Notes: generated by a model from the sequence alone, not told the origin. Counted from the first letter of the stretch, positions 28,851 to 29,896 are shown. The stretch is 64,000 bases of DNA from a virus (IMGVR_UViG_3300032285_001268:96001-160000); one strand, 5' to 3'. A program made the numbers and translations.

Positions 28851-29675
28851 ATGGCAGAAAATCCGTTAAAGCAGTATTTTAGGCAACCAAAAATCTACAT
28901 TAGTTTGCCCAGCAAAGGTGTATACAACAAGATTGGCAGTATCCAAGGTGATCCTACAAACTTGCCAGTATTTGGTATGACCGGCATGGACGAAATCATG
29001 ATGAAAACTCCAGATGCTCTAATGACAGGTGAAAGTACTGTAACAGTTATACAAAGCTGTTGTCCTAATATCAAAGACGCATGGGATGTTAATATTCTCG
29101 ATACTGATTTGATATTTGCGGCCATACGTATAGCTACCTATGGTAACACCATGCCCATGGCCAACACCTGTAGCAAATGCAGTGAAACTACAGAATTCGA
29201 TGTGGATTTGACCAAAATTATCGATCACTATTCATCACTGTCCTTTGACAATAAAATTGTACTAGACAATCTAGCCATCAATCTGCACCCGTTAAATTTT
29301 AAACAAAGTACAGAATACAGTCTTAGAAACTTTGAAGTACAAAAGAAGCTACAACAGTCATCTACACTATCTGAAGAAGAACAGAAAGAGTTGATCACAC
29401 AAATTTTCAAAGACATGGCCATAACACAGTTCAAGATGTTTTGCGACATCATTGAAAGTGTTGAAACTCCAACAGGTCTAGTCACTGAAAAAACATTCAT
29501 TGCTGAATGGTTGGAAAACTGCGAAGGCATAGTCTATGACAAGATCAAAGATCATTTTGATCAAAATAGAGAGCGTATGAAAATCCCAGGACAAACTGTA
29601 ACCTGTACAGCTTGTAAACATGAAGATGAAGTAGTTATTACGCTAGACCAAGCTGATTTTTTCGTCAACGCCTAA
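28851..29675 (+). CDS. gp26: Baseplate hub assembly chaperone, gp26-like (274 aa)
   Basis: LPSKG, D.D.IF.AIRIATYG, two CxxC motifs (CSKC, CTAC); ends DFFVNA*. Confidence 0.8.
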   Translation: MAENPLKQYFRQPKIYISLPSKGVYNKIGSIQGDPTNLPVFGMTGMDEIMMKTPDALMTGESTVTVIQSCCPNIKDAWDVNILDTDLIFAAIRIATYGNTMPMANTCSKCSETTEFDVDLTKIIDHYSSLSFDNKIVLDNLAINLHPLNFKQSTEYSLRNFEVQKKLQQSSTLSEEEQKELITQIFKDMAITQFKMFCDIIESVETPTGLVTEKTFIAEWLENCEGIVYDKIKDHFDQNRERMKIPGQTVTCTACKHEDEVVITLDQADFFVNA

Positions 29676-29896
29676 TTAGATTAGACGCCTCGGGTATTGA
29701 AGAATATCTAGTTGGGCTTGATAAAGAAGTTAGAGAAATTAAAAAAGAATTAGTTCAGTTAAGTTGGTATATGCGAGGCGGTGTAACAGTAAATGATTTA
29801 CTGCATATCTACAGCTTTGACGATAGAGAAGCCATGTACGAAATTGTCAAAGGCAACTTTGAACTAACCAAAAACTCAGGAATGCCTTTAATTTGA
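29657..29896 (+). CDS. gp51-like frame (79 codons), probably reached by -1 frameshift from gp26
   Basis: Frame opens right after a TGA at the slippery T TTT TTC; reads FFRQRLIRLDASGIEEYLVGLDKEVREIKKELVQLSWYMRGGVTVNDLLHIYSFDDREAMYEIVKGNFELTKNSGMPLI*; first ATG only at 29771. Confidence 0.65.
   Translation, partial: FFRQRLIRLDASGIEEYLVGLDKEVREIKKELVQLSWYMRGGVTVNDLLHIYSFDDREAMYEIVKGNFELTKNSGMPLI

Follow-up and report, generated by a model that had tools for sequence, protein, structure and literature searches.

A probable programmed -1 frameshift extends gp26 with a gp51-like tail in a T4-like phage and its relatives

Programmed frameshifting is considered a nearly universal feature of the tail assembly genes of long-tailed phages, and a conserved frameshift of their tail assembly chaperones is said to have been described by Xu, Hendrix and Duda in 2004. 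To our knowledge, the T4 superfamily has been a conspicuous gap in this pattern. In the 64,000 nucleotides of viral DNA analyzed here (the window), a gene of the gp26 type ends shortly after a run of six T, at which a -1 reading frame with no evident start codon of its own opens. The question is whether this second frame is a separate gene or the C-terminal part of a longer form of gp26. Judging from comparative sequence analysis, gene 26 is very probably a programmed -1 frameshift cassette giving a 274-aa and a ~348-aa form, the counterparts of gp26 and gp51. The original prediction that gp26 is fused to a start-less frame by a -1 slip is thus borne out by the comparative evidence, the frameshift being strongly supported by the invariance of the slippery heptamer (including its synonymous site), a switch of codon periodicity, the lack of a conserved start, a covarying downstream stem and natural single-frame fusions.

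The 274-aa ORF of the window matches the PF12322 T4_baseplate family with an E-value of 4.6e-14 (53.1 bits versus a curated cut-off of 24.5 bits) and the phrog_150 'baseplate hub' profile with 9.2e-18. Its 3' end reads GAT TTT TTC GTC AAC GCC TAA, where Phe270 would occupy the P site and Phe271 the A site of the slip (Table 1). The -1 frame is shut by a TGA (29654-29656) immediately 5' of the heptamer, stays open for 79 codons (29657-29893) and stops at a TGA (29894-29896) that overlaps the 3' end of a convergent ORF at 29888-30721(-). Joining residues 1-271 to the 77-codon extension gives the long form of ~348 aa. The earliest ATG, GTG or TTG of the -1 frame is the ATG at 29771, its 39th codon, and no AGGAG or other Shine-Dalgarno-like sequence precedes it. 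The predicted coordinates of the heptamer and of the closed and open parts of the -1 frame were all recovered, as were a first ATG 38 codons in without an obvious ribosome-binding site and a frame filling the gap up to the convergent gene. In the alignment of relatives, residues C107, C110, C252, C255, F270 and F271 are invariant, the gp26 core ending at the aromatic FF motif about 15 residues past the second Cys pair; the tail of the window carries a W-Y-M-R-G-G motif. As a side observation, the pairs C107/C110 and C252/C255 suggest a structural zinc site in common with T4 gp26 and gp51.

Table 1. Features of the gp26 locus in the window, with their positions, strand and basis.
Feature	Position	Strand	Basis or remark
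730-aa divergent protein, weak tape-measure candidate	26596..28788	-	phrog_10613 tail length tape measure, E 0.0015
Frame-0 gene of the gp26 type (baseplate hub assembly)	28851..29675	+	274-aa short form; PF12322, phrog_150
Predicted slippery heptamer T_TTT_TTC	29657..29663	+	register X_XXY_YYZ, in frame with gp26
Proposed -1 extension, 77 new codons RQRLIRL... and TGA	29663..29896	+	periodicity, fusions, tail profile
Spacer, 6 nt, between heptamer and conserved stem	29664..29669	+	sequence and alignment
Stem 5' arm GCCTAATTAGAT	29670..29681	+	pairs with 29706-29717, 12 bp, putative stimulatory stem
Frame-0 stop TAA, end of short form	29673..29675	+	3 codons past heptamer
Stem 3' arm ATCTAGTTGGGC	29706..29717	+	pairs with 29670-29681

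Searching with the 79-aa peptide (tblastn) gives a full-length match, including the part before the internal Met, immediately 3' of the gp26 gene of Agrobacterium phage Atu_ph07, Sinorhizobium phage Phosso and Xanthomonas phage Xoo-sp13, and a match to its N-terminal half in RaK2-like Klebsiella phages. In each of these four loci, the heptamer falls on the codon position that it has in the window, and a -1 ORF of 73-81 codons follows. A profile search of IMG/VR returned more than 588 relatives, from which 80 were kept; together with the earlier loci this amounts to 90 captured gene ends from IMG/VR and isolates, with gp26 identities of 27-54%. In-frame heptamers are present at the equivalent codon in 90 of 90 loci, being T_TTT_TTC in 89 and T_TTT_TTT in one, and coding constraint extends upstream of the internal ATG, as anticipated for a check on the gp26 3' ends of relatives. 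The -1 ORF spans 72-81 codons; it is complete within the locus in 87 of the 90, with lengths of 73-81 codons, and exactly 79 codons long in 84 of these 87. Moreover, the codon before the Phe pair is variable (AAT, GAT, CAT, GCT, CGT, GGT, AGT, ACT or TCT), encoding Asn, Asp, His, Ala, Arg, Gly, Ser or Thr, with a constant final T. This first T of the heptamer, a synonymous third position, has zero entropy over 75 unique sequences, versus 1.49 bits at other third positions. In the relatives, the heptamer is followed by the frame-0 stop at a distance of at most about a dozen codons, with no conservation of the frame-0 tail sequence.

The heptamer is also shared by seven further jumbo-phage genera (PA5oct, GAP32, CBB, Serratia BF, XaC1, XbC2 and PBECO4) and by a second uncultured clade. 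Chance was considered as the origin of the ORF and rejected, the heptamer and the -1 ORF being kept across the survey of relatives. Homologs without the heptamer, which would speak against the slip, were limited among these records to Escherichia phage CMSTMSU (MH494197, UNVERIFIED_ORG), where a run of five T is present and gp26 is split in two ORFs. This sole exception among the examined records apparently contains many indel errors, making it unfit as evidence in either direction. Separately, Rhodothermus phage RM378 (NC_004735, about 25929-26700) has a gp26 homologue with the C-terminus ...ESFFWNKL* behind a run of seven T (TCC TTT TTT TGG), and its tail-like ORF of 76 codons lies in the +1 frame and not in the -1 frame. 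This arrangement could correspond to a one-base error in an old genome, to a +1/-2 shift or to a one-U deletion by RNA polymerase.

The same organization is found in cyanophages, vibriophage KVP40 and pelagiphage HTVC008M. The slip sites read TCT TTT TTC GCA TAA in S-PM2, GAT TTT TTC GTA TAA in KVP40 and AGT TTT TTT TAA in HTVC008M, and the -1 ORFs are the small genes annotated as 'gp51 baseplate hub assembly catalyst', the gp26/gp51 pairs being S-PM2p207/208, KVP40.0328/0327 and HTVC008M gp023/022. Tails of this group give Gp51_C/phrog_634 matches of 1.9e-27 and 8.4e-20, and the -1 ORF of S-PM2 also matches positions 240-281 of phrog_150. Among unique cyanophage-type loci, 57 of 57 carry T_TTT_TTC and a -1 ORF of 61-68 codons with start codons at inconsistent positions. 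None of the records of S-PM2, KVP40 and HTVC008M annotates a frameshift.

Downstream of the heptamer, a stem is predicted at the spacing given in Table 1, prolonged in the window phage by an outer extension of 5 bp (29664-29668 with 29718-29722); the minimum free energy of the fold is -19.6 kcal/mol, with a z-score of -3.05. Over 74 distinct sequences of the window's own clade, to which the covariation refers, 87.6% of the stem cells are paired versus 78.7% in shuffles, and 62 cells are changed on both sides versus 17.6 expected, neither value being reached in 500 shuffles. Slid-register controls are 19-53% paired. In other genera, folds suggest that some have their own hairpins about 1-18 nt past the heptamer, and no stable fold past the heptamer was obtained for RaK2 and Serratia BF. 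An Rfam scan of 29400-30000 returned nothing relevant.

These elements are consistent with the following mechanism. Most ribosomes would read TTT TTC GTC AAC GCC TAA and release the 274-aa gp26 core. A fraction of them would pause over the 12-bp stem 6 nt downstream, the two tRNA-Phe on U_UUU_UUC would slip back by one base, CGU would become the next codon, and translation would run for 77 more codons to give the ~348-aa long form, with the junction ...LDQADFF-RQRLIR... and a helical C-terminal tail. In E. coli, UUY codons in the A site and homogeneous heptamers are highly shift-prone (PMC4066793). We infer that the slippage is ribosomal and that both forms would act in concert in the initiation of the hub and tail tube, like lambda G/GT.

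The product of such a shift would be identical if RNA polymerase added one U in the run of six T, leaving some mRNAs with gp26 and the tail in one frame, and therefore transcriptional slippage would also account for a conserved run and a conserved -1 ORF. Longer runs in Xoo-sp13 (seven T) and HTVC008M (eight T) also agree with it, as does RM378, where loss of one U from the RNA would fuse the +1-frame tail behind its seven T to gp26. Nonetheless, six T is short for efficient slippage of a bacterial RNA polymerase, which is usually known on runs of 8-9 or more, the seventh position of the heptamer is C in 89 of 90 loci, and the run length shows no upward drift over ~170 loci. Moreover, polymerase slippage has no need of a covarying stem at the classic 6-nt spacing. 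Transcriptional slippage is then quite unlikely as the source of the long form.

The ribosomal frameshift also agrees with the coding constraint on the two frames. The entropy by codon position in the 75 unique sequences follows frame 0 before the heptamer and frame -1 from the first base after it, and the codon periodicity is gone past the -1 stop. In the 38 codons preceding the conserved Met, the -1 periodicity gives values of 1.01, 0.63 and 1.30 for the three positions, the same as after the Met; hence, conservation is not restricted to the MRGGVT... part, the outcome that would have pointed to a small gene starting there. Ahead of the frame-0 stop, the -1-frame residues R3 and L6 are invariant or nearly so, and the frame-0 tail of the relatives is variable and sometimes shortened by earlier stops. 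Start codons follow no common pattern: 41 of 80 unique loci have no ATG, GTG or TTG in the first 38 codons of the -1 frame, and in the others they are scattered. Since no consistent start codon exists in this frame, the starts chosen by gene callers for the small ORF in public data are scattered as well, with lengths of 41-98 aa.

Direct fusions of both parts exist in nature. An early search for longer tail-bearing homologues found none, although an exhaustive search with the tail profile among 1.84 billion representatives did, yielding 312 tail-bearing proteins. Most of these are short ORFs called separately, and 19 cluster representatives of 319-351 aa have the tail at the extreme C-terminus, with PF12322 ahead of it in six of six fusions scanned against Pfam. 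Their junctions (...LDxxxxF-R-x-[RK]-[LI]...) are colinear with the predicted ...LDQADFF-RQRLIR. One of the representatives shares its 90% cluster with a fusion gene whose DNA shows a single frame with the non-slippery CGT TTT CGT. An unrooted and approximate FastTree tree places the fusions in two clades within the frameshift types, requiring two changes by parsimony, and therefore the frameshift state is probably ancestral.

In a confident AF2 model (pLDDT 90.6, pTM 0.85) of one natural fusion, the tail forms four helices. With this model, a Foldseek search against the PDB gave no match, a wide VIA-align search gave generic helical hairpins only (Z of 8.2 at most) and a BFVD search retrieved other baseplate-hub proteins only; among PDB sequences, neither the core nor the tail profile had a match. 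Two further observations concern the tail-bearing proteins. A protein of 1435 aa contains five separate stretches matching the tail profile (E-value 4.9e-10), which may reflect either a coiled-coil artefact or repeats of tail-like units. Also, in the metagenome contig Ga0116227_10001555 (7018-9017), from the in-frame fusion lineage, an ORF of 327 aa ends at the fusion start, with an overlap at 7998-8001, in a gene context unlike that of the window.

The 79-codon frame could alternatively be a small gene of its own, as 'gp51' is annotated in cyanophages, translated by termination-reinitiation or from a non-canonical start, the T run being kept for Phe-Phe; the candidate start in the window is the ATT at 29675-29677, overlapping the TAA. 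In Atu_ph07, Phosso and many cyanophages, an ATG does occur no more than 3-5 codons away from the heptamer, as an ATGA overlap at the gp26 stop in the first two and as a start at codon 3 or 5 in 36 of 57 cyanophage-type loci, and therefore coupled re-initiation could also express the tail there. GenBank annotates separate small ORFs, and in T4 the product 26' is likewise made from an internal start within gene 26. Against a separate gene, the start has no conserved position and is missing before codon 39 in about half of the loci, as counted above, and R3 and L6 are kept in the -1 frame before the frame-0 stop, unlike the frame-0 tail. Further points against it are the invariance of the synonymous T before the Phe codons and the use of TTT TTC and never TTC TTT, T4 itself using TTC TTT. 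Also, the natural fusions show the tail working as a covalent C-terminal domain. Altogether, a separately translated gene appears very unlikely. An assembly error in which the T run is mis-called and the true gene is one in-frame ORF can practically be dismissed: homopolymers are error-prone, CMSTMSU has five T with a broken gp26 and in-frame versions occur in nature, but these versions have four T and a single Phe, not seven or five T, and ~170 assemblies and isolate genomes, independent of one another and obtained with many technologies, agree on run length and frame, effectively refuting a sequencing error.

With the programmed -1 frameshift as the preferred reading, the relation of both forms to the T4 proteins can be considered. 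T4 gp51 (249 aa) matches PF12322 with 3.9e-52 over residues 1-201, followed by a C-terminal tail, and nearly all the retrieved full-length T4-type gp51 proteins combine PF12322 with PF28602 Gp51_C. Over the 282 positions of phrog_150, T4 gp51 covers 13-280, T4 gp26 covers 14-235 and the window ORF covers 2-234. T4 gp26 ends in ...KEFFELL, encoded by the non-slippery GAG TTC TTT GAG, has no tail and is directly followed by gene 25. Regarding copy number, T4 has two PF12322 genes, and RaK2, Atu_ph07, PA5oct, GAP32, Xoo-sp13, S-PM2, KVP40, HTVC008M and RM378 have one each; one is also found in the window's own record, which has 185 kb and is ~50% complete. Because T4 gp51 is a gp26-family protein with a tail, because of these copy numbers and because the -1 ORF is the annotated gp51 in other phages, the short form can be matched with T4 gp26 and the long form with T4 gp51, and thus one gene of the window would supply the products of the two T4 paralogs.

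The similarity of the tail itself to that of T4 is weak, and the case for homology is therefore made mainly by the position, frame and slip site that the tails have in common. Comparing the 79-aa frame with T4 gp51, as originally advised, was unfavorable, hhalign of the tail against the single T4 gp51 sequence giving a probability of 2%. The narrow tail profile against T4-type Gp51_C columns gave 0.4%, the same as shuffles, and the 79-aa peptide with 23 relatives gave neither phrog_634 nor any other meaningful match in Pfam and PHROGs, the Pfam set apparently being without PF28602. A broad tail profile against Gp51_C-type tails reached a probability of 29.6% (E-value 5.7e-4, score 21.9 versus a maximum of 13.9 in 30 column shuffles). 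For full-length fusions against T4-type gp51 the probability was 67.5%, with the alignment running through the tails and an identical position of the tail after the core. The description of the frame as gp51-like is then upheld by architecture and by the annotated small gp51 homologues, with a weak similarity in broad profiles, but not by a direct HMM match. On a related matter, T4 gene 26 (3803-4429 of the T4 stretch) has a nested product, 26', consisting of the C-terminal 95 aa and made from an internal start, which in work of 1992 by Nivinskas is reportedly an AUU. Expression of two products is apparently a recurring theme in the gp26 family.

The original prediction also placed the cassette next to a tape-measure-like gene and proposed a G/GT-type chaperone system. 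The first part holds as far as adjacency goes, but the 730-aa gene is divergently oriented and only weakly tape-measure-like by its profile match (Table 1); its syntenic counterpart in RaK2, ORF088, is annotated as TMP-like. Gp26 of the window is thus not placed between tube and tape measure, being divergent from the 730-aa gene and without an adjacent tube gene. It can also be noted that in 24837-28788(-) the 730-aa gene is followed by the portal gene (phrog_213, 1.3e-110) and, farther on, by those of the prohead protease and the major head protein. This neighborhood is unusual for a tape measure gene, and therefore the identity of the 730-aa gene deserves a check. In HTVC008M, a single strand carries the tail tube, gp26, the gp51 tail, a small ORF and a putative tape measure, which is the canonical place of a G/GT cassette. 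KVP40 and S-PM2 have a tail-tube-family gene, gp26, the tail ORF and a large uncharacterised protein; that of S-PM2 gives a weak virion-structural match.

Leiman et al. 2010 (PMC3004832) count both T4 proteins, gp26 and gp51, among the chaperones of hub assembly and state that the particle contains no gp51. A Pfam scan of the window gp26 gave no match to a chaperone family. By analogy with the gene order of the relatives and the T4 literature, a G/GT-like role of the short and long forms is plausible. A broader reading, which we hold tentatively, is that gp26/gp51 could be the tail assembly chaperone of the T4 superfamily, derived from an ancestral G/GT-style cassette. Under this tentative reading, the cassette would still be working in cyanophages, pelagiphages, schizo-T4 and RaK2/Atu_ph07-type jumbo phages; T-even phages would have resolved it by duplication, with gene 26 as the short form and gene 51 as the long form; and two uncultured lineages would have fused it.

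No report of a gp26/gp51 frameshift was found in the literature searched, the 2004 work mentioned at the outset lying outside its scope, and no join is annotated in the gp26 region of ~15 inspected GenBank/RefSeq records. If the frameshift is real, hundreds of T4-like genomes from cyanophages, pelagiphages, vibriophages and jumbo phages need re-annotation where they now list a start-ambiguous "gp51" of 40-70 aa or an empty gap. The signal is conserved in jumbo phages, cyanophages and KVP40 and therefore would explain these tiny orphan "gp51" genes; it would likewise explain the paralogy of gp26 and gp51 in T4 and the single such gene in other T4-like phages. Moreover, the ratio of core-only to core-plus-tail product would be a testable handle on the little-understood roles of gp26/gp51 in hub assembly, and frameshift, fusion and two paralogs would constitute a natural series for studying the evolution of recoded genes.

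Finally, the locus can be compared with known systems. As in lambda gpG/gpGT, a -1 slip on X_XXY_YYZ a few codons before the stop of a tail assembly gene would produce a short and an extended protein. However, lambda G has ~100-140 aa, whereas the window protein has ~270 aa, PF12322 and two CxxC pairs, together with a downstream stem; the Pfam and PDB searches gave no sequence or fold match to known chaperones, and the gene is divergent from the TMP-like gene. E. coli dnaX (tau/gamma) likewise combines -1 frameshifting on a homopolymeric heptamer with a stem-loop ~6 nt downstream, as in the window, but in dnaX the frameshift yields the shorter product and makes use of an upstream Shine-Dalgarno-like stimulator, none being evident here. 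S-PM2, KVP40 and HTVC008M share with the window the codon position of the heptamer, the -1 frame and a tail ORF placed directly 3'. Their tails of 58-66 codons are clear Gp51_C/phrog_634 members and often have an ATG near the slip site, whereas the window tail is longer, contains the W-Y-M-R-G-G motif and lacks a start codon ahead of the internal Met. In T4, gp26 resembles the short form in its PF12322 match and in ending at the same FF motif, and gp51 resembles the long form in having a PF12322 core with a helical tail from the same position, although this tail has ~50 aa versus 77 in the window and the similarity between them is marginal. T4 encodes in two separate, divergently transcribed paralogs with non-slippery codons what the window phage would obtain from one gene and a frameshift.
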